A DNA stretch of 20,000 bases. It comes from an uncultured virus (IMG/VR IMGVR_UViG_3300020036_003824) (taxonomy: Duplodnaviria; Heunggongvirae; Uroviricota; Caudoviricetes). How positions within the stretch are numbered: position 1 is the first letter of the stretch; every line of letters begins with the position of its first letter. The stretch lies in the IMG/VR virus record IMGVR_UViG_3300020036_003824; one strand, 5' to 3'. The notes beneath the pieces were generated by a model, which searched no databases, had not been told where the DNA came from, and was given only the letters and a program-made list of their open reading frames with translations. This document shows positions 1 to 19,412 of the stretch, in pieces. A program made the position numbers and the translations under genes.

Positions 1-34
1 TAAACCCTGTTTTGTTTGTCTTTTGTTTCGCCCC

Positions 35-268
35 TTAGTTTGCCGTCGGTTCCGTTTCCTCTTTTCCTTTACCTGCCGTTTTGCCGGTAGTTACCGGGCG
101 CTCTTTTTCGGTTTTTTGCGTGATGTCATCTTCGTGACGGTCAACAATTAACCAGTTTTGGGAAGTCCGGCGAAGGTCTTCGTACTGCTCAACAGTTACG
201 GCGCGTTCATGCTTCGTGATGTTGTGGCGAATCGTAAAGGATTTGTAAGTTTTAGCCTGTTTAGCCAT
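35..268 (-). CDS. hypothetical protein, 77 aa (head module)
   Basis: ATG-started ORF co-directional with the structural operon; charged low-complexity C-terminus. Confidence 0.7.
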   Translation of the reverse strand: MAKQAKTYKSFTIRHNITKHERAVTVEQYEDLRRTSQNWLIVDRHEDDITQKTEKERPVTTGKTAGKGKEETEPTAN

Positions 269-280
269 GATGGAAAAGTG

Positions 281-499
281 TTAAATGCCTTCGTTAATAA
301 GATCGGCGGTCATTCTGAAAACTTCGCGGTACATCGCCTCGTCGCATTCTATCTCGTCGGGTATGTTGTAGCGCTTTTTAAACTGAATGATCGTTTCCCT
401 CCAGTCTTCGTTCGGATGTTCATCCCGTCTCGATGTTGCGTATCCATGCAGCAGCATGTAAATCGGAGAACGGCGCAAAAACGCCGTAATGCCCAACAT
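281..499 (-). CDS. hypothetical protein (likely ATG start at 499, MLGITAFLRR...)
   Basis: The track start at 544 (TTG) lies inside the promoter motif; an in-frame ATG follows downstream. Confidence 0.6.
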   Translation of the reverse strand: MLGITAFLRRSPIYMLLHGYATSRRDEHPNEDWRETIIQFKKRYNIPDEIECDEAMYREVFRMTADLINEGI

Positions 500-541
500 C
501 TTATCGGGAGCCGCCCGTTGCCTTGTTTTTACTTCCCTTTG

Positions 542-549
542 CAAAGTTA
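542..549 (-). promoter_or_regulatory. Bacteroidota sigma-70 -7 element TAACTTTG
   Basis: Matches TAnnTTTG; intergenic and AT-rich context. Confidence 0.6.
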
Positions 550-580
550 TATACTTTTTCGGTTAAACAAATAAATAGCC

Positions 581-1039
581 TCAAAAAGCATCGAATTCGC
601 CCTCGTATGCAGCGCCCGGCACACGCCACGCCTCCAAAATGGTGATGATGGTCGTACCGTAGTCGGTAGAGTATGCTTCGCAGGGTAGTTTCTTGCCATT
701 CTGGTACAGGCGGAACTTCGTACACATCGAAGCGGGCAGCCTTCCTTCATTGATGTCCGAAAAGTCAAGTTCGGATATGGTATCATCCGTTTCATTCGGG
801 AAATACTTCCTGAATGTCACTTCCAGATTGCCCAGCGGCGGCGCTGATTGCCCTTGCCCATTGTTTCCGGATGCGTAAGGGTATAAAGTCCACCGGCTTT
901 TCGGCCACGCATCGCAGTCACGCGAAATCTCAACCCACCCGTTGCCCGGATCGGATGCCTGCAACAGGTCGAATGTGCCGCACTCCCAATTTCGGAGTAT
1001 GGCAGTCCCGCCGATGATCTTTGATGCGATTACGCCCAT
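581..1039 (-). CDS. hypothetical protein, 152 aa (MGVIASKIIGG...)
   Basis: ATG at 1039 after A-rich leader, just downstream of the upstream stop at 1048; the track's extension to 1234 overlaps the neighbouring gene. Confidence 0.7.
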   Translation of the reverse strand: MGVIASKIIGGTAILRNWECGTFDLLQASDPGNGWVEISRDCDAWPKSRWTLYPYASGNNGQGQSAPPLGNLEVTFRKYFPNETDDTISELDFSDINEGRLPASMCTKFRLYQNGKKLPCEAYSTDYGTTIITILEAWRVPGAAYEGEFDAF

Positions 1040-1047
1040 CTCTTTTT

Positions 1048-1455
1048 TTAGTTGAGGCCCAAAATGCCGCCGCCCATTGGGCGCTCTATCAGTAACATTG
1101 AGGTGCTTGTAATTTTTACGTCGTACCTGACCTTCCCGTCGATGCGCTCCATCTTGCGTGTGGTATTGGTGAATTTCACGCCGGGCATGTGCGGCGGTTC
1201 GTAAGACTGCTGCATAACGCCCGTCTCTACCCATCCGACGCCGAACTGCTGTTCCATATCCTCTACAACGCCTGCCAGGTAGCGCGCAAAATCAGTCATC
1301 ATGTCGATTTTTATCTGCGTACGCTTGGCGCTCTTGCCCTTGACGTAGTACATATCTTCGTTGTACTCTTCGATGGATGCTTCCAGTTTAGAAATCTTCC
1401 TTTCTATTCCTGAAATGATCTTCAGCGCTTTTTCCTGCTCTTGTGTCATGTCCAT
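1048..1455 (-). CDS. hypothetical protein, 135 aa, N-terminal coiled coil
   Basis: Tightly packed ORF downstream of the head morphogenesis gene. Confidence 0.75.
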   Translation of the reverse strand: MDMTQEQEKALKIISGIERKISKLEASIEEYNEDMYYVKGKSAKRTQIKIDMMTDFARYLAGVVEDMEQQFGVGWVETGVMQQSYEPPHMPGVKFTNTTRKMERIDGKVRYDVKITSTSMLLIERPMGGGILGLN

Positions 1456-1464
1456 TGCTTTTGG

Positions 1465-2424
1465 TTATTGATTTGCGTTGATTACTCCATAACTCTGCCG
1501 TATCTGCTCTACCTTTTTCGGGTCTAACTGCATTGCCAGTTCCTCGGTGATGTAGCGTATGCGGTGTCGGCAGTTCCACCTTCCACGGTCTATACGCGGC
1601 GTGTACGGGATACCGGAAGTTTTGCCCGGCAGATCAGGATCGCCCGGCCATTCCGTATCCGCTTCAATTACAGCAAACACCTTGCCCGCTTTTTTGATGC
1701 AGAAAGGCCGGCTGTCGTGAATGATGCCGCCAACGTAGATAAAGTACGGCAGTTCCAAATTCTCCCGGAACTGCTCATTTTTTATTTCTGCTACCTTGTT
1801 GAACAGATCGTACGCATAGCCCGATGCTTTGTTGTTGAAGTTGGCGTTGATCGCTCCGGGCTGTCCTGCATGTCCGCGTATAAAGTCCTTTACCGTCGCG
1901 TTCAACTCCTTCAATGTGCCGCCCGATTGCAGTTCCTGCAAAAATAGCATTTTCGCCTGCTGCCGGACGGATGGTATTTTGGATATGTCGGAAATCATAC
2001 CGCCCTTTATCATGTTGCCTCGCGCATCTATGCCAAGCGCGGCCCGCAGTAGTTCGTTCGACGTGGCGATATCGTTGATGATCTTTTCCGCTGCAAAGTC
2101 TTTGTAGCACATGCCCGTCATGTCGGCAATGGCAAGTAAGTCTTGCACAAAGCCCCGCATAAGCGGATTCATTACCTCCATTTGCCAGGCGTCGAATACC
2201 TCGTCTATCCTGTACAGTAGCAGGTAGTTGGGTATCGAATTGACAAGGGCGCCGTTCGAAAACTCCAAATCGGAAAACACATTGTCTATCAGGCGCAAAA
2301 ACAGGTCGCGTTCCGCTCTGGATACCGATCCCGACAGCGATGACTGCCGACGCTCGATAGCATCTGCAATTTCCTGTGCGTCTTTCGACAGCCTTGCGAG
2401 TAGTTGGGCAGCGGATTCGGCCAT
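1465..2424 (-). CDS. phage head morphogenesis / minor capsid protein (SPP1 gp7/MuF-like)
   Basis: C-terminal DSRPFC...GRWNCRH motif; position just after portal. Confidence 0.8.
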   Translation of the reverse strand: MAESAAQLLARLSKDAQEIADAIERRQSSLSGSVSRAERDLFLRLIDNVFSDLEFSNGALVNSIPNYLLLYRIDEVFDAWQMEVMNPLMRGFVQDLLAIADMTGMCYKDFAAEKIINDIATSNELLRAALGIDARGNMIKGGMISDISKIPSVRQQAKMLFLQELQSGGTLKELNATVKDFIRGHAGQPGAINANFNNKASGYAYDLFNKVAEIKNEQFRENLELPYFIYVGGIIHDSRPFCIKKAGKVFAVIEADTEWPGDPDLPGKTSGIPYTPRIDRGRWNCRHRIRYITEELAMQLDPKKVEQIRQSYGVINANQ

Positions 2425-2579
2425 TATGCCTGTTTTTTCTTCTTTTTACGTTTTTTCTTCGCCTCTTCGGCTGTGCTAAGTGCAATGGCGACGGCCTGCT
2501 TTTGCGGCTTGCCTTTCTTCATTTCGTGCTTTATATTCTCCGAAATGGTTTTCTTTGAAAATCCCTTTTTGAGTGGCAT
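2424..2579 (-). CDS. small basic protein, 51 aa (DUF6496-like), [51 protein letters not shown]
   Basis: Hand translation; TAATG coupling to the next gene; QKQAVAIAL motif; absent from the ORF track. Confidence 0.8.
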
Positions 2580-2590
2580 GGATGGGTGTT

Positions 2591-4426
2591 TTATTGTTGC
2601 TGATTCTGGTTGAGCGCGGGTGCATTTCCTGCGAGTTGCTGTTTTATCAGCAGTACCTGCGCGTCGATCAGTTTCTTTTGGTCTATACGCGGCATGTCGT
2701 AGAAGTTGGGGTTCTCCGAAAGTATCACCTCCATGATGTCGGACTTATTCAGGAAAAACAACTTCTTATCTTCCGGCACAAGCGCATTGTTCAGGGCGAC
2801 AATGATCTGCGCTTCCGTCATGCCCCGGAACGGATTGTGCTGATCGTCGATTTGCGCGCGTCTGAGCGCTTCGGGATCATCTTGCAGCATGACTTCCATG
2901 ATTCGCAGTTGCAGGATCGCACAGGCGTCCGTGCTTGCCCCTGCCGTTCGTGCGGCGGTCAGTTCGTCGAACAGGTCGTATACCGTCTCAAAACGCAGAT
3001 TGGATGGAATGATCGGCTTTGCCATGCCGCCGGCTACTTTGACAGCGGAAGCGATTGCGCGTGACAGTTCAGAGCATACGGAAGAAATGTGATTGGAATA
3101 GGGCCAAAGCGCATCATTCACGCCCTGTTCCGCCCGGCTGTGAAAACGCGCCGTCTGCGCCACTTCGCTTTTCGTGGTCAGTTCCGAATTGTAAACTGCC
3201 AGGTTGGCTTTTTCTATCCACTTATCCCAAAGAGTGATGAGCAGCGCGGCGGCTTCCGGCGGGAAGTGTATGTATGCCAGCATTCCCGACAGTTCAACTA
3301 TCAGTTCTTCCTTCGAATCCGGCATATCCACCGTAATTTCTTCCTGCACCGACGTAGGCCGGTTTTTCCTGCCCGTACCGCCGCATACCTTGCAGGCTGT
3401 GCCGTCGGATCGTTCCCCTCCGATACAGTCTTTTGCCCCGCATTTATCCGCAAACCGGATCGGGATAGGACTTGCAACGAGCGCAGCCGTCAGATCGACC
3501 TCACTGTTTGTTTTCAGCAGTTTCTTTGCGAAGGGAAGGGCAGCATGAAAGATGGAAAGTTTTGTCGCCCCGTCGTCGATCGGATTGTCGATGTACCCCG
3601 TACGCACGGCAGGTGTTTTGGCGTACCCGTGCGGGATTGGGATGACAGCCTCGTAAATCCGGTTGTCGATCTGTACCAGGTACCCGTTTTGGATAGTAAC
3701 ATTCAGCGGGAACATCTCGTTTTTGCCGGGCGCGTTCCGCATGGAGATGTACGTCTGTGCCAGCCGTGGCGGCAACTCTTGCAGCACAACCGTTTGCAGC
3801 GGGCGGTACATGGTCAGGCGCTCCAGTTTGTAGCGTGTCCCGTCTTCATCCTGCTCAACGATTTGACGGCAACACAGGTACAGCAGTTCGGATTGTTTGT
3901 ACTGGAAATCGACTGCCATTTCTGCCGTCACCTCGAAAGGGTAAGGCTTCGCGTTGTTTTTATTGTTGTCGAAGTCTTTCCACTCCACGACTGAAAAGCA
4001 GTTCGGGTCGTAGATATTCCAGTAGCGCACCCGCTCAAAGCAGTACGGGAAAAGCCCCTTCGTGCCGAATGCGGAAAGAACGTTGCGGTTAAATTCGTTT
4101 GCCCGCTTTCCATCTTCGTCACCATCGACGACGACATACTGCTTCCAGTTGGAGCGCTCGATCTTTGCGACCGGCTTTTCCAGCATCATGCCAAGCGCAC
4201 TTTGCACTTCCGCCGTTATTTCTTTGCGCTGTAAAAAGAGTTCGTCGGATTCGCGGCGGGTAAATATGCGCATGTACTTGTCCAGGTTCACCCCGCCAAA
4301 GTATGCTTTCAGTTCGGCCCCGTACTCAACCGTCCATGCGTATCCGGGATGGTAGGACGTGGCGCCGTACCTGGCGATGTTGAAAAGGTGGTTGAGCGCT
4401 TCGTTATTCGTCATTATGGCTGCCAT
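2591..4426 (-). CDS. portal protein (start may be 4414)
   Basis: About 610 aa between TerL and the gp7-like gene; internal CxxxxC...CxxCGGTG insert. Confidence 0.8.
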
Positions 4427-5822
4427 TGCTGCTTAATAGTTTCTCAAACCGTTTGTATTGCGATTTGAGTATGTAGGTTACCAAATACCGCAGAGCGTCC
4501 GACGTATGGCCGTAACGCTCGAATGATACCCCGCCTTCCGTTACCCTTTGTTTCAGCACCCCGCCATTTGCGTCCTGTTTGATGTAAAGCAAATCCTGTA
4601 TGAGATGATAGCAGTCCCGGTCGATAATCAGTTCAACGCCCGGCACACGCCCTTCGAAGATTGCGCACAAAAATAACACACTTTTACGGACTTCCGGGTT
4701 TTGCGCCTGAATCCGTAAAGAATTGCTATCCGCTTTTGTCCATAATGCCGCTTTTGCGATCTGGTAATCCGATCTTGCCGCCCTCGTATCGCGTTTATTG
4801 CCCGAAGCATCGCCGTAAATGTACACTTTGTCGATCTTATCTGCCCAATCGATCAGGAAGTCTTCACAAAGCGCCTGTGTTGTAGAGCGCGGGTTTTTCA
4901 GGCAGTATTCCTTCAGTATGCGTATTTGCAGCGTTCCGTCTTCCTTATACCTGCACTGGCAAACAAGCAGTGTGATGTATGGAACTACGTTTTGGTCAAA
5001 AGACAGGTGCAGCACAGGTACCGATGGATCGAAGAGCAGTGAGGCCGTATGTTTACCCTGGTCGAACGAATAGAACGCTTCGTTACCCGTACGCGCTACC
5101 GCATCATAATCGCCGTCAAGCAGGCGCTGACGTTCAAGCAGTGGCAACTTTTCCAGTTGCTTGCGGTATGCCTTTCTAAATTCAGGATCCGGATTGTCTG
5201 AAAGCAGCGATCGGATAACCATTTGGTAATCCTTCAGAGAAACGATGTTGCCTTTTTCGTCTTTGATGTATCGCTTTCGTGTCCATCCGGGGTCAGGGTT
5301 TCCGGTAAGCAGCAGTTTTGGCGCATTGAAAGGTACCTGCCCCAGTTTGTAGCGGATACGGCTTGAAATGATGTCAATGATATGCTCTTCCACTTCCGGC
5401 GATTCATCCACCGCCGCGTCGGTCAATTCCAGCGAGCCGAAGTTATGCGAATTGGGATTCGATGGTTGATAGGAAAGGGCTTTTAGCAGCGTCTCGCTGC
5501 CGTTGCTCCAAAATATCTCATTCTCACCTCCCTTCCTCCATGTAACGCCCATTTGGTTGTATTTCCATACCGCTTCCCATCTTTCCTGAAAGGTCTTCCA
5601 CGTGGTCGTCATCAGGTCGGTGAACTGCTTACGCCCGATCAGGCCGCGTGTGCCGGGATACATCAAACGTCGGTAGATATGCCAGTCGCAGAGAAGGCGG
5701 GATTTGCCACCTCCAGCCGCACCGCCGTAGAACAACTCTTCTATCGACGGGTCGTTTTCCAGATATTCCCATGCCAGACTTTGCTTATAGGAAAGGTCTA
5801 CGTTCAGTATGTTAGCGCCCAT
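4404..5822 (-). CDS. terL: terminase large subunit
   Basis: Walker A YGGAAGGGKS, Walker B AAVDE, coupling motif TGNP, nuclease motifs SFD, GDASG and HTSDALRY. Confidence 0.93.
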   Translation of the reverse strand: MGANILNVDLSYKQSLAWEYLENDPSIEELFYGGAAGGGKSRLLCDWHIYRRLMYPGTRGLIGRKQFTDLMTTTWKTFQERWEAVWKYNQMGVTWRKGGENEIFWSNGSETLLKALSYQPSNPNSHNFGSLELTDAAVDESPEVEEHIIDIISSRIRYKLGQVPFNAPKLLLTGNPDPGWTRKRYIKDEKGNIVSLKDYQMVIRSLLSDNPDPEFRKAYRKQLEKLPLLERQRLLDGDYDAVARTGNEAFYSFDQGKHTASLLFDPSVPVLHLSFDQNVVPYITLLVCQCRYKEDGTLQIRILKEYCLKNPRSTTQALCEDFLIDWADKIDKVYIYGDASGNKRDTRAARSDYQIAKAALWTKADSNSLRIQAQNPEVRKSVLFLCAIFEGRVPGVELIIDRDCYHLIQDLLYIKQDANGGVLKQRVTEGGVSFERYGHTSDALRYLVTYILKSQYKRFEKLLSSNGSHNDE

Positions 5823-6242
5823 TTATTCCTCTTGTGGGGGCTGTGACTGCAAACGAACGGTTATAATGGTAGGGATTAAGGCTTCGCCGTCTTTGCCCGT
5901 ATGCTCGTTAACCTGTTTTGGTTTTCCGTGCGCCCTGTTCAACTGCTTGTCGATGAAGTCGCCTATCTCTTTGTCTGTGGCAGTTACTAACCTTCGGGAT
6001 ATTCTTTGCACATAGATAGGCTGCTTTGCGTCCTCTGCCAATTGCTTTACCCGGTCTTTATTAAGGTTCAAAAGAAGGGAGATAACGTCCGATATTTGGC
6101 CGTTTGTCACACCCTCGTAACCTTCCTCTTTTAGTTGGGCGATAAGTGAGGACACGAGTTTTTTAGGGCGGCCAGGGCTTAATTGGTCGCCTTTTTCAAA
6201 CCTGTTTAGTTTCCCGCCGTGAGGCTGCTCTACCTTTTCCAC
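5823..6242 (-). CDS. putative terminase small subunit
   Basis: Immediately upstream of TerL; FEKG..PGRPKK N-terminus and HGKPKQ..EHTGKDG C-terminus typical of TerS-like proteins. Confidence 0.7.
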   Translation of the reverse strand: MEKVEQPHGGKLNRFEKGDQLSPGRPKKLVSSLIAQLKEEGYEGVTNGQISDVISLLLNLNKDRVKQLAEDAKQPIYVQRISRRLVTATDKEIGDFIDKQLNRAHGKPKQVNEHTGKDGEALIPTIITVRLQSQPPQEE

Positions 6243-6247
6243 CTTAT

Positions 6248-7303
6248 TTATGCCTTATTTATTTTGATTAACCATTGAATCCAAATTTGATGCGCTATTT
6301 GCGCAGTCATTACTGGGGGAACGGACATGCCGATTAAGTAACGAGCATGTAACCCTTTAAAATTATAATCTATTGGATAGCTACCACACAAACAACATTC
6401 TTTATCATTTATTTGACGTGGCAATTCATACAGCATAAAACTACCACCTTGACTATTGATTGTAGGGCAAACTTCATCAGAATGTAAAATTGGATTAGTA
6501 AAGCCAGATAATCGGCTTTCTAATCTCATAACAGTATCTCCGTTTGATTTGTCTGATTTTATTCTATTTTTCCATAAATACAATTGCCTTTCCGTTAAAT
6601 CTGAAACGTTGTTTTTTTCAATTATTTCAGAAAACAAAATCGCTTCTTCGTTAAACGCCAATTCCAACTTCGGCAACAAAAACTCCTTTTTATGCCCAAT
6701 AAAAAACACTCTTTCTCTTTTTTGCGGCACGCCCATTGATGCAGCATTAAGACAAAACACCTGCACCCTATATCCCGCCTCGGTCATCCGTGCTACAATC
6801 TGCTTTGAATAGTATTTTGCGTTGCCTTGTATTATTCCCTTCACATTTTCCAGCAAACAAACTTTAGGCCGTAGTTTTTTAATAGTTTCAATGTAGACAA
6901 AAACCAGGTCATCCAAAGTTTGTTTTGCCTGACCTTCACGGAAAACCTTTTCTTTGCCCCATGCGCTTTCCCGGCTTCCTGCCATTGAGAACGTAGAACA
7001 CGGCGGCGAACCGTCTAAAATGTCAAGATTGTAAAGTTCCTCGGGTAAATTTTCGCGCTCGTTAAATTTCCGTATATCTTCAACAAACAAGTGTTTAGGC
7101 TTATGGTTGCCCTGATATACATCCGCCACCTTTGGGTCAATTTCAACACCCCCAAAATGCGTAAACCCGGCCAATTTGTAGCCCATTGTAGAACCGCCCC
7201 CACAAATAAAAGTACCAAACACTTTGCAGCCGTTTGGTTCAATTCCTTTTGCCGGATAACCGTCCGACAAGTTCCATTTATACGGAAATTTGTGTTCCTG
7301 CAT
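6248..7303 (-). CDS. DNA (cytosine-5)-methyltransferase
   Basis: Motif I FICGGG, catalytic GSPPC, ENV, QKRERVF, motif X GMSVPP. Confidence 0.93.
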   Translation of the reverse strand: MQEHKFPYKWNLSDGYPAKGIEPNGCKVFGTFICGGGSTMGYKLAGFTHFGGVEIDPKVADVYQGNHKPKHLFVEDIRKFNERENLPEELYNLDILDGSPPCSTFSMAGSRESAWGKEKVFREGQAKQTLDDLVFVYIETIKKLRPKVCLLENVKGIIQGNAKYYSKQIVARMTEAGYRVQVFCLNAASMGVPQKRERVFFIGHKKEFLLPKLELAFNEEAILFSEIIEKNNVSDLTERQLYLWKNRIKSDKSNGDTVMRLESRLSGFTNPILHSDEVCPTINSQGGSFMLYELPRQINDKECCLCGSYPIDYNFKGLHARYLIGMSVPPVMTAQIAHQIWIQWLIKINKA

Positions 7304-7835
7304 TTTCCAGTAGTTTTAACAGGGCATCTTCCGGCGTATCTGCAATTTCAGATAATGCGGCTTTTATTTCAAAAAACTGTGAAGGTTGAAATTTAAAAGT
7401 AAGTGTCATTTCATCCTCCATTTCATCGGTATCAATCTCTTTGTTTTTGTCTGAAAAATCCTGATCTCCAAATACCGGCAAATCCACGCCCCATTCCTGC
7501 AACTCTTCCGCGTCCCATTCATTCGCCAGCGCGTCCATATCAAAATCTCCAAAACCAACATTATCAACGACGATAAACCGGCGTTGCTGATCTTCCGTTA
7601 ACTCACTTGCTCGAATGATCGTTACCTCTTTCATCCCGGCTTCTATGCAAGCCCTTAAACGCATATTGCCGCCAAGAACCTCTAACTGGTCATTGACGAC
7701 AATAGGCCGTATTTCGAGCATTTGCGGAAAGTCCTTTACTGACTGCACAAGTTTATGAAACTTATCATCCCGGATCGTTCGCGGGTTTGCCGGATTTGGC
7801 TTTAGTTTCTTTATGTTTATCGTTTCCGTGTTCAT
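7278..7835 (-). CDS. ParB/Srx N-terminal domain protein
   Basis: LKPNPANPR, RPIVV, VLGGNMRLRA and DN motifs. Confidence 0.88.
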   Translation of the reverse strand: MNTETINIKKLKPNPANPRTIRDDKFHKLVQSVKDFPQMLEIRPIVVNDQLEVLGGNMRLRACIEAGMKEVTIIRASELTEDQQRRFIVVDNVGFGDFDMDALANEWDAEELQEWGVDLPVFGDQDFSDKNKEIDTDEMEDEMTLTFKFQPSQFFEIKAALSEIADTPEDALLKLLENAGTQISV

Positions 7836-9565: not shown

Positions 9566-9789
9566 TCCCAAAATCCTTGTTTAATAAATTTTCCGTTTGC
9601 ATCAAAAATCACGTCCGAACGAAAAGGCGTGTAGCCATCAAAGTCGCTATTTTCTTCGTCCGGTTCGGCCCACATGGTAATAACTATTTTTGCATTTGGA
9701 TAGCGGCGAATATCATCCTGGATTTCTTTTGGCTTCAATTCTATGCCAAAGGACTTATAAAGATCAATAAATTTTTGTAGGTCTGTCAT
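9562..9789 (-). CDS. hypothetical protein, 75 aa
   Basis: ATGA-coupled on both sides; C-terminal FDANGKFIKQGFWE. Confidence 0.75.
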   Translation of the reverse strand: MTDLQKFIDLYKSFGIELKPKEIQDDIRRYPNAKIVITMWAEPDEENSDFDGYTPFRSDVIFDANGKFIKQGFWE

Positions 9790-10271
9790 TCTCCTGGAAA
9801 GTTAAGGTTTGCAAATTCGCCAAATAACTCTTTGGCCTTTTGATCGTAAGCGCGGGCGGCCTGTTCGGGGGTGTTGTATGTGCCTATGTAAAGCCTTATC
9901 CCGTTAGCCATTAATTTTGACTGCCATCTTCCAGCAGGCGTTCTGTATGCGCCTTTAAGGCCATGTACATTTTCTTTACGGGGCTTTCTATTCATAAGGT
10001 TTTGAGCCTGGCTACAAAGCCTTAAATTTTCGCGTCTGTTATCGAGTTGATTTCCGTTAATGTGGTCAACTTTTATATTTATATCCGTAACCCCCATTAT
10101 TTGCCTGTGCAAATATATATTGCCGTTCTTTCCGAATTCAGTGGGCTTGTACCTCTTTATGTATATTCCATGTCTCCGAACGTCTACAAACCACCTGTAC
10201 TTCATCAACTCTTCAAAATCGCAGTCATCAACTAAAGCGAAATAACCCTTTGTAAGTGGTACCTGTTTCAT
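9786..10271 (-). CDS. HNH endonuclease with C-terminal AP2 domain
   Basis: LHRQIM..VDHINGNQLDNRRENLR (HNH_3) and YIGTYNTPEQAARAYD (AP2); likely start MKQVPLTKG. Confidence 0.92.
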   Translation of the reverse strand: MKQVPLTKGYFALVDDCDFEELMKYRWFVDVRRHGIYIKRYKPTEFGKNGNIYLHRQIMGVTDINIKVDHINGNQLDNRRENLRLCSQAQNLMNRKPRKENVHGLKGAYRTPAGRWQSKLMANGIRLYIGTYNTPEQAARAYDQKAKELFGEFANLNFPGE

Positions 10272-10360
10272 AAAAAAGAAAGCGCCATACAAAAAACGAT
10301 ATGTATCAGATACCGAAAATGTATAGCGCAATTTGTCTTTGCCGATCTGATACATCGGTT
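10272..10360 (-). promoter_or_regulatory. structured 5' leader with two interleaved inverted repeats and a U-rich tail
   Basis: Stem A 10301-10311/10345-10355; stem B 10282-10291/10320-10329. Confidence 0.55.
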
Positions 10361-12345: not shown

Positions 12346-12930
12346 TCAATACGCTTTTCCGTGCATCCGTTCCCGTGTTGCGTTGTACTTCATTTTCAAT
12401 TCGATGTGCTTTAACAGGTCGATTTCTTCGCGTTCGCAAAGTTGAATGATGAGGGCAAGCGCTGAATGAATATTGTCTTTTGATTTTTCACTGTCCCAAA
12501 TATCATTCGTAAGCGCGTATTCACCCGCTCTTTGAATTTCACCGCAAATCTGGAAAAGGTTGGCTCCAAAATTTTCAGAATCCAAAGAAATTAAAGTAGT
12601 CGAAAGTAGCGCCGGTTTGATTTCAATTTCTTGCGAAGCACAGTAGTCCAAAATTCGGATAACTACGTCTGCGATTTCGTCGGCTGTCGTATCCTTTATG
12701 CAGTTTTCAAATGATATTTTAAACCACTGCTCATCGGTCACGTTTCCGTTATTAGGCAAGGCGAATTGTTTTAAATCTGCTTTCCTTACTTTCCTATGCG
12801 CTTCCAAAGCCTCGCTTGCTTCCGAAATAATCAGCATGAAAAGTTCGCCCGTGTTCCGGGGTGAATCCCAAAAACCTTTGTCCTTTGCGTTTTGGTGGAT
12901 TGCTTTTGCTAAGTTGTTTAGTTGCTTCAT
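12346..12930 (-). CDS. MazG-like nucleotide pyrophosphohydrolase
   Basis: KGFW, LIISEASEALEAHRK, DEIADVVIRILD, KMKYNATR..HGK motifs. Confidence 0.85.
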   Translation of the reverse strand: MKQLNNLAKAIHQNAKDKGFWDSPRNTGELFMLIISEASEALEAHRKVRKADLKQFALPNNGNVTDEQWFKISFENCIKDTTADEIADVVIRILDYCASQEIEIKPALLSTTLISLDSENFGANLFQICGEIQRAGEYALTNDIWDSEKSKDNIHSALALIIQLCEREEIDLLKHIELKMKYNATRERMHGKAY

Positions 12931-14562: not shown

Positions 14563-14882
14563 TGTTCTATAATTTCAACACCGTTATTTTGAAAGAGAAG
14601 TCCAATTGCTTGCATTATCGCGTCGGAAACTCCACCCTTGTCATAACGATAAGTTATTTGAATTGTCATACTTTCGTCGGTTTCCTCTGTTATCCATGCC
14701 CACCAATCGTTAGAGATTGAATATAGGTGAATTTTGTTGCCTTCGCGCCACCAATAGCGCCCGTATTGCATTGGATTTCTTATTTCCATTTCAGTTGGAA
14801 GGTTCCCTATACCGGCAAATACAGAGGCGATATTAAAGACGTTGCGGTGTGTATTCCCATGCTTTGATACTATCAGTTTCAT
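14559..14882 (-). CDS. hypothetical protein, 107 aa
   Basis: ATG-started ORF with upstream promoter motif. Confidence 0.75.
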   Translation of the reverse strand: MKLIVSKHGNTHRNVFNIASVFAGIGNLPTEMEIRNPMQYGRYWWREGNKIHLYSISNDWWAWITEETDESMTIQITYRYDKGGVSDAIMQAIGLLFQNNGVEIIEQ

Positions 14883-14913
14883 CGTTCTTTTTGTTTAACT
14901 GTTAATTGATGTA

Positions 14914-14921
14914 CAAATGTA
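14914..14921 (-). promoter_or_regulatory. Bacteroidota -7 element TACATTTG
   Basis: Matches TAnnTTTG, intergenic. Confidence 0.6.
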
Positions 14922-14945
14922 CACACCCTATCTTACCCAAGAACT

Positions 14946-15305
14946 TTAACACTTTTTCCTAAAGTAAATTTTCACCGTCCTTTCAAAGAGGTTTTCGGTT
15001 CGATCTTTCCATTCCTGAATTTCGCCCGATTTTAGAAAAGCCTGGAATTTACTTTCGGCTTCCTGCTCACTTAACCCCTTTGCTTTGGCTTTTCGGATGA
15101 ACGTTTGATGGATGAAAAGTTCGTTCGTCGGGATAGGGTTTGAAAAAGGAACAACTGAAATCTTCTTCATCGTCTTGTTGGGGTTCAAATATTTGATAGG
15201 ACTGATTGTAAGAAGGCGGCCATAGCCGCTTCGAGCGATTATTACTATTGCCTCATTCGTTTGAATGAGATTAGCAAGAATTTGTTTTGAAGAATCTTTT
15301 GCCAT
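14946..15305 (-). CDS. hypothetical protein (alternative start 15170)
   Basis: ATG after an A-rich leader. Confidence 0.6.
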   Translation of the reverse strand: MAKDSSKQILANLIQTNEAIVIIARSGYGRLLTISPIKYLNPNKTMKKISVVPFSNPIPTNELFIHQTFIRKAKAKGLSEQEAESKFQAFLKSGEIQEWKDRTENLFERTVKIYFRKKC

Positions 15306-15338
15306 TTTTTTAAAGTTTTGTAGTGAAAAAAACGAATC

Positions 15339-15405
15339 GGCTAACCCCGCTTTCCCGCCTATGCTTCTTACACAGGCGCACGGCGGGAAAGCATCAGTTA
15401 TCAGA
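15339..15405. repeat. conserved hairpin element copy 1 (attC-like)
   Basis: TAACCCCGCTTTCCCGCC-23 nt-GCGGGAAAGCATCAGTTA. Confidence 0.85.
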
Positions 15406-15586
15406 GATCAGAAAAAAACCATAAATAGGCCAGTTGCCAAGGCTGCGTTATTGTTTGCGTTCCGGCCAAATGACGGGAAACGGTAGCGTCGTGAACTTTA
15501 ACGCCTTTTTCAGCAGCCCACCGGATAAAGTCACGGGCCGTTTTTCCCGTGACTTCAAAGTTTTGTTTTAGTTCGGTATGAGTCAT
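15401..15586 (-). CDS. small HTH DNA-binding protein, 61 aa
   Basis: VKVHDATVSRHLAG resembles an XRE/Cro recognition helix. Confidence 0.7.
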   Translation of the reverse strand: MTHTELKQNFEVTGKTARDFIRWAAEKGVKVHDATVSRHLAGTQTITQPWQLAYLWFFSDL

Positions 15587-15589
15587 CTC

Positions 15590-16036
15590 TTAGAAGGAAA
15601 TTGCAATGTATTCATCAAGAGGGATGCCCAATTCATTTGCCCGGCTTAAATGTTTTTGATAAGGCCAAATGAAATTACAAAACGCATCGGTTTTCGCAGC
15701 GATAAAGTCAAACCTGTTTTCAACCCCCAAGTCAACCAATTCCTTTCCAATCGCACAAACAAACGCCCTGTATGGCCTAACGCCCCAATGTTTTTCCGCC
15801 GCTCCATTAACAATTTTACGCAATTCTATCAATGCCAATTTTTCCACAACATTTACCTTTGCAGATTTTGCCCCGTTTGGCAAAAGCAGTAAGGCGGCGC
15901 AATGCGTTCCAAAATGGTTTACTTCGCCATTCCGGTTATCTTCCAGCCAAACAACCCGTTTCAAACCTTGCTTGCCGCAGCAGGAGCAAAAATCTTTGTC
16001 GTCATTGACTCCGAGTAATTTGTAATTGACTTCCAT
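15590..16036 (-). CDS. hypothetical protein, 148 aa, putative Zn-binding N-terminus (CSCCGK...FGTHC)
   Basis: ATG at 16036 downstream of the promoter; the track start at 16078 overlaps the promoter region. Confidence 0.75.
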   Translation of the reverse strand: MEVNYKLLGVNDDKDFCSCCGKQGLKRVVWLEDNRNGEVNHFGTHCAALLLLPNGAKSAKVNVVEKLALIELRKIVNGAAEKHWGVRPYRAFVCAIGKELVDLGVENRFDFIAAKTDAFCNFIWPYQKHLSRANELGIPLDEYIAISF

Positions 16037-16064
16037 TGCTTTTATCTTTTCGTGAATGATAGGA

Positions 16065-16132
16065 CAAAGATAAGGCAAGTTTGATTATTTGTCAAGTATT
16101 TGAGCAATTATTTTTGACAAATACTCAAATGC
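16065..16132 (-). promoter_or_regulatory. promoter TATCTTTG (16065-16072) with upstream palindromic operator-like sites
   Basis: TAnnTTTG match; TTGTCAA 16090-16096 / TTGACAA 16114-16120; AGTATTTG 16096-16103 / CAAATACT 16118-16125. Confidence 0.6.
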
Positions 16133-16165
16133 TTTTCGGGCAAATCAAAAAACGTTGAAAATCAA

Positions 16166-16231
16166 TCTGATAACCCCGCTTTCCCGCCAATAATCCCTAA
16201 GCGGTCAAAAGCGGGAAAGCCTCAGTTAAAA
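16166..16231. repeat. conserved hairpin element copy 2 (attC-like)
   Basis: TAACCCCGCTTTCCCGCC-22 nt-GCGGGAAAGCCTCAGTTA. Confidence 0.85.
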
Positions 16232-16284
16232 AAACAATGCCGCGCAATCAGAGCCGGTAAGAGCGGCAAAGAAAACACGGCATC
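16228..16284 (-). terminator. long-loop hairpin followed by a U-tract (terminator-like)
   Basis: Minus strand ATGCCGTG...CGCGGCAT then TGTTTTTTTT. Confidence 0.45.
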
Positions 16285-16318
16285 AAGTTTCTTATTACAA
16301 CCTCTTACGTTGTTTTGA

Positions 16319-16326
16319 CAAAGTTA
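16319..16326 (-). promoter_or_regulatory. Bacteroidota -7 element TAACTTTG overlapping the ninG stop
   Basis: Matches TAnnTTTG; points into a non-coding structured region. Confidence 0.5.
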
Positions 16327-16827
16327 AACTAATCCTTTCAACTTCACAAGTTTTTTAAACTCCGATTGATAAAACTTTGCAATTTCGTTTAACTCAAAAT
16401 CAGATAGTCTTTTGTTTGGCAGTTTTGCAAGTCTTTCAATTTTCAAAACCTCATCTTCGCCGTATCGCTTAACGAGGTATTGCCGCATTTTGATTTTTGC
16501 GCCCTCCATGAAATAGTTGTCTTTCAGGCATTGCACCCCGCAATTTTCTTTCATAAATCGAACGGCAAAATGTCCCCGGCTTTCAAAGTGGCCTGTTTGC
16601 GCTGAACCGTCCGGCATTTTCCATTTAATTACCTTTCCACAAGTGCAGCACCTCACTAACCCGTTTTCGTCGGCCTCATTGGCACGAAACCAAAGCGAGA
16701 ACGCCGTGTCCGCTTTTTTCAGCGCTTTTGTGTGTGCGCTAACTTCCGGCTTTTTCTTCGCTGGCTTGCTTTTCTTTTCGGCTTCCTTTCGGAGTGCGCG
16801 GTATTGTGACGCTGTTAGTGTTTCCAT
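16324..16827 (-). CDS. ninG: NinG/Rap-family recombination endonuclease
   Basis: ADTAFSLWFR, CCTCG, GHFESRG..VRF..ENCGVQC..DN, ELNEIAKFY. Confidence 0.85.
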   Translation of the reverse strand: METLTASQYRALRKEAEKKSKPAKKKPEVSAHTKALKKADTAFSLWFRANEADENGLVRCCTCGKVIKWKMPDGSAQTGHFESRGHFAVRFMKENCGVQCLKDNYFMEGAKIKMRQYLVKRYGEDEVLKIERLAKLPNKRLSDFELNEIAKFYQSEFKKLVKLKGLV

Positions 16828-16987
16828 TTTCTAAATTCCTTAAAATGTAATTTTCGACACGCTCGTATGCGTTAATTTCAGAAAGCGCTGCCGATTCTGA
16901 TATAGGCATACACTGTTCAAAATAGAGCTTAGCGTTTGACTTAGATTGCTTTTTCCAGGCTCTTATCTGTTTTAGCAGGTCTTTCAT
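16739..16987 (-). CDS. hypothetical protein, 82 aa
   Basis: ATGA coupling upstream; its tail overlaps ninG. Confidence 0.6.
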   Translation of the reverse strand: MKDLLKQIRAWKKQSKSNAKLYFEQCMPISESAALSEINAYERVENYILRNLENGNTNSVTIPRTPKGSRKEKQASEEKAGS

Positions 16988-18002: not shown

Positions 18003-19412
18003 TCAAAAAGGCACATCCAGCGGTTCTGATCTTGTTGCTGGCATTCCTGCGTTTGGCGACCAATCAGGAACGGCGTTTTGCATTATTCTTTCATCGAAAA
18101 CGGACGGAACATCGTAAAATCCTTTGATGTGATTGAATCTGCATTCCGCACCCAGCCTTCCGGTTCTGCGGCCTTTCCCGACAAAAATATCCGCATAGGC
18201 TTCCGGGTAGGCTTCAATAACACCGGGGCTTGTTTCCCGGTCTGAAACGTTCACATAATCAGGTCGATACGGCAAAAGAATTAAACTTGCATCCTGTGTA
18301 AAATTCTTACAATCGGCTATGTCGTACATGAACGCTCTTTTGTCGGGTCGTTGCATTACCTCCTGTTTCACTTGAGCGAGTACCATAACCGGGATTTCAA
18401 GTTCCAAACTTAGCGCCCTAAATTTAGCGCTTATTTCTGTCAGTTCGTTTACCCGGCCTGATTTGTATCCGTTGATGTAAACCAATTGCGCGTAATCTAC
18501 CACCGCAAACTCGATGCCTCTTTCGTACTTATGTTGTCTGATTTCTGAAATGATATTATGAAGAAACGGCCCAGGATTAACTGACTTTATCGGCAGTTCT
18601 TTTACCTTTTCCCACGCTGATTTCAATTTCATCATTTCATCAATCGGCATTTTGGAAAAGTCACTTTCAAATTTTGTGTTACAATACATTTGCCAAAGCC
18701 TTTCCTGCACGTCCATCGGCGCGTTTTCCAAGTTGATGTAAAGCGATGGAATGTTTTGGTTCGCTGAATACAAAATCTGATTCATCGCAAAGTAAGATTT
18801 ACCACCGCCGGAAAGCATTGCAACTACAATATAATCGCCGGGACGAAAAAACGGAACTTGACTTCTTAGTGAATTAAGAAACGGCTTTACCGGGTAATCG
18901 TAAACAATCCCTTCAAAAGAAGAAAACAAAGCCTGTTCAAATTCGGCCCTTCCGTCCGAATGATGCACCCTTGCACCCATACCTTTTTCCCGGCGCATCT
19001 TTTCTGCCTTTGCAATTATTTCCGTATTCGTGTCGCCATCCAAAAGCCAATTGGTTTGATGTTGCATTATTTCCGTTTCGGAGTATCGGCAATACGAATC
19101 AAAAAAGAAGTCAAACGCCGTAACCAAATCCATGCCGCTTTCCTCCATTGAAAGACTTTGCAATTCGCCCACATCCCGCGAAAGAGAAACAGCAACAGTA
19201 GATGCTGAATAACTGCCCGTTTTTTTGAATTGCTTTAAACACTCTCCGATAATTTCAGACCAAACGCCAGGCGTTAGCATCTCTTTTTTTATTTGATCTT
19301 CTATGCGGTGCATATTGTACGGCTCACCCAATACCCTTTTAGCGAGCATTTCGAGCGCCGTTTGCAGGTGTGTGTATAATTTCTGCTGCGCTGTTTGCTG
19401 AAAGTCACCCAT
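18003..19412 (-). CDS. DnaB-like (SF4) replicative helicase
   Basis: Walker A SGGGKS, INLE, Walker B VVDYAQL, LAQ..RPDKR, QDA, KGR; C-terminal DVPF. Confidence 0.85.
   Translation of the reverse strand: MGDFQQTAQQKLYTHLQTALEMLAKRVLGEPYNMHRIEDQIKKEMLTPGVWSEIIGECLKQFKKTGSYSASTVAVSLSRDVGELQSLSMEESGMDLVTAFDFFFDSYCRYSETEIMQHQTNWLLDGDTNTEIIAKAEKMRREKGMGARVHHSDGRAEFEQALFSSFEGIVYDYPVKPFLNSLRSQVPFFRPGDYIVVAMLSGGGKSYFAMNQILYSANQNIPSLYINLENAPMDVQERLWQMYCNTKFESDFSKMPIDEMMKLKSAWEKVKELPIKSVNPGPFLHNIISEIRQHKYERGIEFAVVDYAQLVYINGYKSGRVNELTEISAKFRALSLELEIPVMVLAQVKQEVMQRPDKRAFMYDIADCKNFTQDASLILLPYRPDYVNVSDRETSPGVIEAYPEAYADIFVGKGRRTGRLGAECRFNHIKGFYDVPSVFDERIMQNAVPDWSPNAGMPATRSEPLDVPF

Follow-up and report, generated by a model that had tools for sequence, protein, structure and literature searches.

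When analyzing a 20,000-nucleotide stretch of the uncultured Caudoviricetes record IMGVR_UViG_3300020036_003824 from IMG/VR (hereafter the window), we followed up two short hairpin elements that bracket a pair of small genes and that an earlier reading of the letters alone (the original prediction) had taken for the borders of an integron-cassette-like unit. We think it probable that the elements are recombination sites of a hairpin-based, integron-like cassette system in phages of wastewater and sludge, probably with Bacteroidota as hosts. They belong to a family whose stem covaries and which forms co-oriented arrays; the segments between elements have complementary ends, and comparison of loci showed junctions in the hairpin foot, an empty and an occupied version of one site, and the same cassette in different contexts. 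The features of the unit in the window are as follows, R1 being a covariance model built from 13 gene-strand copies of the element.

15342-15400, minus strand: element 1 (R1, 75.9 bits, E 2.3e-15; fold, arm identity)
15397-15405: cassette-proximal foot GTTATCAGA, complementary to 16166-16174
15398-16225, minus strand: putative mobile cassette of 828 nt with hairpin, promoter block, gene A, and gene B (identity with locus L006, run contigs)
15401-15586, minus strand: gene B, 61 amino acids (aa), the conserved gene of this cassette type, with its stop within the element foot
15590-16036, minus strand: gene A, 148 aa from an ATG at 16036 (162 aa from a TTG at 16078)
16040-16165, minus strand: conserved putative promoter/operator block (promoter match and inverted repeats)
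16166-16174: cassette-proximal foot TCTGATAAC, complementary to 15397-15405
16171-16228, minus strand: element 2, the cassette's own hairpin, ahead of the promoter in gene orientation (R1, 73.3 bits; fold)

Both elements lie where the original prediction had put them, with the letters and shared arms it gave. The left arm TAACCCCGCTTTCCCGCC (15342-15359 and 16171-16188) is identical in the two copies at 18/18 positions, and the right arm (15383-15400 and 16211-16228) at 17/18. Read on the gene strand, an element consists of TAAC, a 4-nt spacer, a 10- to 11-bp stem with a 22- to 23-nt loop, a 3-nt spacer, and GTTA, which bears out the proposed fold of TAAC/GTTA, small internal loop, and stem. 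The stem of element 1 has 11 bp and its loop 23 nt; the loop of element 2 has 22 nt. Fold z-scores of both elements range from -3.3 to -4.6, and 0 to 1 of 200 shuffled sequences folded equally well. The two loops had been described as 23 and 22 nt long and unrelated; the lengths stand, but the loops are not wholly unrelated, as they align across the family with a weakly conserved central motif. The 13-nt core of the arm occurs exactly twice in the window (chance expectation, 0.71 matches at up to 2 mismatches), and R1 found only elements 1 and 2 there, besides their weak opposite-strand shadows.

The scan with a covariance model, which had been suggested with the original prediction, revealed the same element in arrays on many phage contigs. 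R1 recovered 29 gene-strand copies, plus 15 weak opposite-strand shadows, from the first 16 sources; a further 32 IMG/VR loci gave 81 matches, and 76 metagenome loci gave 168. Whole phage records have the element at 2 to 6 places, as counted in related virus records. R1 gave no match in unrelated bacterial loci (603 kb), in the surroundings of 14 Bacteroidota intI genes (279 kb), in Polaribacter phage P12002L, or among the scored part of the candidates from 151 sampled Bacteroidota genomes. A 17-letter pattern scan of bacterial genomes, a specificity control that is uninformative on the host, returned single chance matches only, and R1 confirmed none in 80 loci. Rfam had no matching family and nothing near threshold, and a blastn search of the hairpins against cultured phages in INPHARED gave no match.

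In the main stem, changes on both sides were seen in 6 of 9 pairs among the 13 sequences and in all 9 pairs among 114 distinct sequences. In the latter alignment, which was fitted to R1, 89.9% of the stem cells were paired, compared to 31 to 44% with the partner slid, and the foot helix TAAC/GTTA was paired in 99.3% of cells. Of 143 elements, 136 have a T ahead of AAC and 138 an A behind GTT; the core is 56 to 58 nt long in 118 of them, and there are a few long forms of 77 to 85 nt. An inner loop helix was dropped as a general family feature, its pairing reaching only 45.8% of cells. A generic foot-plus-hairpin scanner, set to demand 6 or more paired foot letters, failed to detect the phage elements, as the ends of a physical element rarely pair beyond 4; it was kept only for finding chromosomal attC sites.

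Two hybrid hairpins were noticed in the family. At 2534-2601 of L008, the left half is that of the hairpin at 1615-1683 of the same locus and the right half is of another type; in the hybrid at 2354-2421 of L007, the arms pair poorly. Summed contig depth in the metagenome runs X1, X2, X9, and X15 was several-fold higher at window positions 15302-15435 and 16173-16239 than in the flanks, as would be expected if the element family has many members in these samples.

Arrays contain up to 5 co-oriented elements, 200 to 1400 nt apart, and none of 63 loci had elements on both strands. In 70 cassettes, the longest open frame was on the strand of the element, and in 5 it was on the other one. The stop codons of cassette open reading frames (ORFs) tend to fall on the TAA of TAAC. 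In the window, the TGA of the 61-aa gene B (15401-15403) directly abuts the TAAC of the element, the arrangement that the original prediction had described as a stop inside TGATAAC. Some cassette ORFs, taken from their first start codon, open inside the upstream hairpin (L260 1630-2373, L261 6027-6731, and L162 1976-2602). Recurrent cargo in 113 non-redundant loci comprises N6/N4 and C5 DNA methyltransferases, a caspase-like peptidase, and unassigned ORFs. Every context with recognizable genes was phage-like; metagenome contexts were judged from ORF scans of 7 long loci.

Site-specific movement is indicated by comparisons of related loci. L013 and L014 are near-identical save for a 626-nt insert in L014 right after TCTGATAAC. 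The insert comprises a hairpin and a 149-aa ORF, and its end CGTTGAAC complements the GTTCAACG following its own hairpin. A second case is a stretch running from AAC through hairpin and ORF to the next AAC, which is 100% identical between L149 (1373-1697) and L155 (158-485) except for a single 1-nt indel in the foot; on neither side are the flanks related, and both breaks are at AAC. An empty site and alternative cargo, both of which the original prediction had named as things to look for, thus exist. In these two cases, the junction partners share only the AAC triplet between unlike hairpins, and L011, L163, and L168 also break at the gene-strand AAC foot. Where cassette bodies are at least 99.6% alike and hairpins differ, it is the upstream hairpin that is kept (0.81 to 1.0 identity) and the downstream one that is different (0.49 to 0.67).

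The cassette in the window behaves in the same way. It is 98.3% identical to L006 across 15396-16228 and nowhere else nearby, and element 2 accompanies it there. In contigs of 4/4 runs, from four studies, records of the cassette or hairpin turn unlike the window at 15396-15401 and at 16228-16230. The AAC foot of element 1 (plus-strand GTT, 15397-15399) is the downstream junction of the cassette, and that of element 2 (plus-strand GTT, 16225-16227) is its upstream junction; the hairpin of element 1 itself would be part of the next unit downstream. The cut is placed to the shared triplet rather than to a single base within it. The exchange at G|TT that had been proposed agrees with these junctions, which lie in the plus-strand GTT, i.e., the gene-strand AAC.

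The feet GTTATCAGA and TCTGATAAC are perfectly complementary over 9 bp, just as had been claimed for the inner ends of the enclosed segment. We compared the letters after the GTT of an element with those before the AAC of the next one. Complementarity of at least 4 nt beyond AAC/GTT was found in 30/52 IMG/VR-based cassettes (an element's own ends, 10/84; random pairs, 11.6%) and in 61/77 metagenome cassettes (own ends, 11/143; random pairs, 14.4%). The test of cargo ends in other copies, which had been suggested along with the claim, thus gave values far above the controls. This split-foot signature is the expected residue of a circular intermediate with a fully paired foot. For the cassette in the window, the predicted circle junction would have a foot of 9 to 10 bp with calculated energies of -16.5/-17.8 kcal/mol, compared to -10.4/-12.3 for the physical element 2. 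Arrays, empty site, end complementarity, and junctions together support the earlier claim that the cassette was inserted by site-specific recombination.

We propose that the site is a 56- to 58-nt imperfect hairpin closed by the conserved gene-strand foot 5'-(T)AAC...GTT(A)-3' and that exchange would take place inside the gene-strand AAC triplet, which is G|TT on the plus strand of the window. With the exchange point inside AAC, a cassette would therefore be hairpin first, then genes: its own hairpin, one or more genes, and then 4 to 7 nt pairing with the letters just after its own GTT. In the excised circle, those two stretches would close a foot of 7 to 10 bp, and in the integrated state they would sit in two neighboring physical elements. 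The segment at 15398-16225 would be one such cassette, with its own promoter, the variable gene A, and the conserved small helix-turn-helix (HTH) gene B. The model further supposes a circular intermediate, folding of single-stranded DNA, and catalysis by a tyrosine recombinase in trans.

Several observations weigh against this proposal. The strand preference of R1 is there by construction, because the model was built from gene-strand copies. End complementarity is missing from 22/52 and 16/77 cassettes, and the two cassette sets are not fully independent because IMG/VR derives from metagenomes and the sets were not de-duplicated against each other. Loops diverge beside identical cassettes, as in element 2 of the window versus L006 (0.81); judging from such loops and the hybrid hairpins, exchange or rapid change apparently also happens inside elements. 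Relatives of the flanking genes yielded no empty site of the window's own backbone, and neither a circle junction nor an empty site of this phage was seen in contigs, the data being assembled only. The element-bearing phages G001 and G002, both rated complete, had no PF00589 match, and no window genes besides A and B co-occurred with elements. Two joints in X1 that skip from 15363 to 16209/16210 were considered as an empty site; they are other hairpin copies instead, because the shorter side has 20 to 21 letters and a foreign loop.

A further reading, to which we give less than even chances, is that of a phage integron-like exchange network of its own, with a dedicated fixed-length, bulge-free hairpin ahead of the genes and a recombinase other than the integron integrase. 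That enzyme might be a Bacteroidota-type phage integrase or a still unrecognized one. It is also possible, if doubtful, that the elements are genuine attC sites in an ordinary cluster of attC sites lacking integron integrases (CALIN), from which cassettes are exchanged with host chromosomal integrons via the host IntI. As outlined in PMC5027507, the recombining bottom strand of attC opens with 5'-RYYYAAC-3' at its 5' end and closes with GTTRRRY at its 3' end, and the site has extrahelical bases, a spacer that is left unpaired, and a terminal structure that varies. The AAC/GTT feet, split R boxes, and one-strand triplet exchange of the phage elements match this outline, and so, less clearly, do their unpaired spacer and variable loop. 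The enzyme is at hand in the phylum, with IntI above the NCBIfam cutoff in 113 of 401 sampled Bacteroidota genomes, and the feet of Bacteroidota attC sites are often TAAC/GTTA too. CALINs have been published in virulent phages, where IntI1 recombined 5/6 tested sites according to the main account in PMC9892861.

The details of the sites nevertheless speak for two families. In our intI survey (genomes G009-G413, loci L199-L212), we saw long arrays of one homogeneous attC type, with more than 20 copies in L203 alone as counted by R2, a model from 11 Bacteroidota chromosomal attC sites. In L199, an attC and a 1.2-kb cassette that is duplicated lie past the 3' end of intI. The Bacteroidota chromosomal sites measure 90 to 130 nt and have a bulged G, feet of TAAC/GTTA, and a 6x2 spacer. 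attC sites in general are about 57 to 141 nt long. The phage sites, in contrast, have no bulge, 4x3 or 5x4 spacers, and a nearly fixed core of 56 to 58 nt. All 93 matches of R2 were in intI loci and none in 18 element-bearing sources, R1 had none in the 14 intI neighborhoods, and no copy of the phage element was found in the searched bacterial genomes. As neither model detects the sites of the other, we therefore conclude that the two share a logic but form different site families.

Polarity relative to the genes is reversed as well. The coding strand of a phage element is the bottom-like strand, the reverse of canonical cassettes; the strand carrying the exchanged 5' AAC is the coding strand, and the hairpin travels with the genes downstream of it. 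Bacteroidota chromosomal integrons resemble the phage arrays in having cassettes in arrays, TAAC/GTTA feet, one-strand triplet exchange, and ORF stops in the foot. They differ in their adjacent IntI, in site length, bulged G, and 6x2 spacer, in a bottom strand that is antisense to the array direction, and in the lack of cross-detection between site models.

The original prediction had itself cautioned that the cores deviate from RYYYAAC/GTTRRRY and that extrahelical bases are not obvious, and both caveats hold. The commonest 7-mers, GTTATGC (39/143) and GTTAGCC (36/143), each have one mismatch to GTTRRRY; the full consensus fit GTTAGGC occurs in only 4/143, and the two 7-mers of the window are GTTATCA and GTTAGCC. 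Neither the model nor the alignments show an interruption of the main stem, and the internal loop between foot and stem is nearly symmetric (4x3 or 5x4 nt). The element is thus described here as a non-canonical, reversed hairpin site and is not filed as a canonical attC.

CALINs in phages are already published. Qi, Rajabal, Ghaly, Tetu, and Gillings (2023) reported 17 of them in 10,705 phage genomes, with methyltransferase cargo (PMC9892861). What is new here is the reversed hairpin site family, a variant of their CALINs. In the main account of that paper, the phage CALINs are likewise arrays of AAC/GTT hairpins set between small accessory genes, the phages lack an integron integrase, and DNA methyltransferases recur as cargo. 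They differ in being canonical attC sites, called by IntegronFinder/HattCI, with the genes mostly ahead of the site, whereas the elements described here form a distinct family (R1 without a match in P12002L, R2 without one in our sources) that is reversed, bulge-free, and of fixed length. Evidence of mobility comes from genome comparison in our case and, as that account describes, from an IntI1 assay in theirs (PMC9892861). No reversed, IntI-less site family was found in the literature by title and start of abstract; the supplements of Qi et al. might list related phages.

As the original prediction had remarked, no integrase lies in the window. No IntI was found in the window, in 10 virus records, or, by tblastn and apart from short generic matches, in 125 loci, and the 14 commonest ORF clusters from the 113 loci include no recombinase. 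On three contigs, we observed a Bacteroidota-type tyrosine recombinase gene that is convergent with the array and whose 3' end overlaps an R1 match.

L011 1332-2540, minus strand: tyrosine recombinase, its stop being the TAA of the element's far foot, by coordinates
L257 1490-1990, plus strand: C-terminal remnant of a tyrosine recombinase, 46 to 49% identical to that of L011
L218 7719-9119 (= L272), plus strand: tyrosine recombinase, convergent with the array

None of the three approaches the IntI cutoff. Such a phage-encoded enzyme could be the system's own and would make this a phage integron-like platform, for which the overlap of convergent genes with elements in L011, L257, and L218 (= L272) speaks. 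We regard this as unlikely, since the complete G001 and G002 have elements and no PF00589 match, the integrase of G007 is about 9 kb from its elements, and the L257 copy is a remnant. Moreover, integrases of this type are the usual enzymes of lysogeny, and a search of viral contigs with the L011 protein returned only itself. The convergent recombinase is a lead; the gene may simply be one more cassette, in opposite orientation. As to the enzyme in general, we would put something other than an integron integrase or a Bacteroidota-type integrase first, the host integron integrase second, and a phage or host Bacteroidota-type integrase third, none of them with even chances.

Quite unlikely, in our view, is that the elements are regulatory RNAs or terminator-type repeats and that genes are shuffled by homologous or illegitimate recombination with no site-specific enzyme involved. 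Gene shuffling mediated by promoter-stem-loop (PeSL) repeats has been published for T4-type phages (PMC2839356, PMC4122927), and, as summarized in these papers, the likeness includes repeated intergenic hairpins bracketing small accessory genes, hyperplastic phage regions, and gain or loss of the bracketed genes. Our elements are always on the transcribed strand, between genes of an accessory or early region. Their covarying stem would also be given by an RNA function, and the hybrid hairpins suggest exchange inside repeats. However, PeSL exchange is ascribed in the same papers to homology of the repeats (PMC2839356, PMC4122927), whereas here junctions lie in a 3-nt foot and cassette ends are complementary. 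Junction partners that share the AAC triplet only, between unlike hairpins, and a complementarity of cassette ends that is absent within a single element are not expected from homologous exchange. The promoter block belongs to the gene B cassette and not to the repeated element, unlike in the PeSL repeat unit. An intrinsic terminator is ruled against by the 22- to 23-nt loops, by the lack of a T run directly after the stems, which are followed by GTTA and unrelated letters, and by the count of terminator-like sites in 14800-16900, which is 0 against 3.0 expected in shuffles. Rfam, as said, gave no match. A terminator or RNA repeat with homologous exchange is thus disfavored; with the elements always on the transcribed strand, a second role for them is possible.

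In transposition systems with HUH enzymes, sub-terminal hairpins, a short conserved cleavage word by the hairpin, and circular single-stranded intermediates are found. That our hairpins are ends or targets of such single-strand transposition, of the IS200/IS605 or REP/RAYT type, is nevertheless very improbable, as neither the 33 ORFs of the window nor the 14 commonest ORF clusters from 113 loci include a Y1 transposase or another HUH family (the scan of small ORFs elsewhere was not exhaustive), each unit has one hairpin and not two, and, to our knowledge, paired feet split between neighboring units are not a feature of that family.

Within the cassette, the unit appears, from its sequence, to carry its own promoter. 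A match TTGACA-17-TATCTT (10/12) is at 16095-16067, the 16040-16165 block has inverted TTGTCAA/TTGACAA repeats, and it is 81 to 91% conserved in L008-L014 and in G001, the closest to the window among the virus records compared. Gene A has an N-terminal Cys/His zinc-ribbon-like motif, and no family was found for it in Pfam, NCBIfam, PHROGs, or Atlas. A 119-nt part of it (15894-16012) shows 73.6% DNA identity to a hypothetical gene of Burkholderia phage Karil-Mokiny-1, which is the sole match of the region among the 50,697 phage records of INPHARED. Gene B is probably a small HTH DNA-binding protein; the same four collections returned weak HTH leads only. Its relatives were found in 12 IMG/VR loci, and it is present in 19 of 125 loci. 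In 9 of the 12, TCTGATAAC is followed by hairpins of several sequence types, all with the GTT end. A toxin-antitoxin reading was considered, as was one of gene B as excisionase-like, and both were without support.

G001 has gene B and the promoter block at 82 to 83% identity in another context, with another ORF replacing gene A. Its similarity to the window ends at TCTGATAAC on one side and continues through the foot on the other, and the hairpin beside that foot has a different stem that still pairs. Related cassettes have unrelated ORFs in place of gene A. Among gene B cassettes, the promoter block and gene B are 80 to 98% alike, and gene A is swapped for unrelated ORFs of 58 to 162 aa, as compared in the window (15590-16036), L003 (G001; 19050-19330), L008, L009, and L012. 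Gene A swapping is a second level of shuffling without a hairpin at its borders, and the hairpin sites do not account for it.

The probable genes of the window are all on the minus strand and are all phage genes. The following were annotated outside the cassette.

2591-4426, minus strand: portal-like protein
4404-5822, minus strand: large terminase
6248-7303, minus strand: C5 methyltransferase
7278-7835, minus strand: ParB-N nuclease-like protein
9786-10355, minus strand: HNH-AP2 protein
12346-12930, minus strand: MazG-like protein
14946-15305, minus strand: 119-aa ORF, function not assigned (downstream flank, phage backbone)
16324-16827, minus strand: NinG/Rap-like endonuclease (upstream flank, phage backbone, outside the cassette)
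18003-19412, minus strand: DnaB

The element pair sits between NinG and the 119-aa ORF. NinG was unlinked to elements elsewhere (0/125 loci), and no NinG relatives were found. The 119-aa ORF had three weak relatives, all without elements; in L139, a 71% relative has no element nearby. Positions 1-7756 of the window correspond to 51336-59091 of G001 at 99.9% identity; the other 12 kb shows either no relation or less than 85% identity, with a sharp mosaic boundary near the ParB-like gene. The HNH endonuclease with an AP2 DNA-binding domain at 9786-10355, amid small ORFs of the early region, is likely a homing endonuclease. The nearest named relatives of the terminase are from phages of Bacteroides, Flavobacterium, Cellulophaga, and Polaribacter, and the runs containing the stretch are labeled as metagenomes from wastewater, sludge, or ponds.

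The gain and loss of small accessory genes by mosaic phage genomes, with single-base precision, is largely unexplained. The elements described here offer a concrete, testable mechanism, in which the 57-nt site and the junction are both defined and the borders of hundreds of natural cassettes are known. If the host IntI is the enzyme, phages and the chromosomal integrons of a major environmental and gut phylum would share a cassette pool, and genes could flow by a new route. With an enzyme other than IntI, the single-stranded hairpin-site logic of integrons would have arisen or spread beyond IntI, and a non-IntI network would allow even virulent phages that lack an integrase to trade self-contained units of anti-restriction methylases, regulators, and other accessory genes. 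The reversed polarity is relevant to the coupling between strand choice and expression: the cassettes cannot rely on a platform promoter, and those without their own would need phage read-through. With its DNA methyltransferases, its small regulators, and a caspase-like peptidase, the cargo points to the arms race between phages and their hosts.

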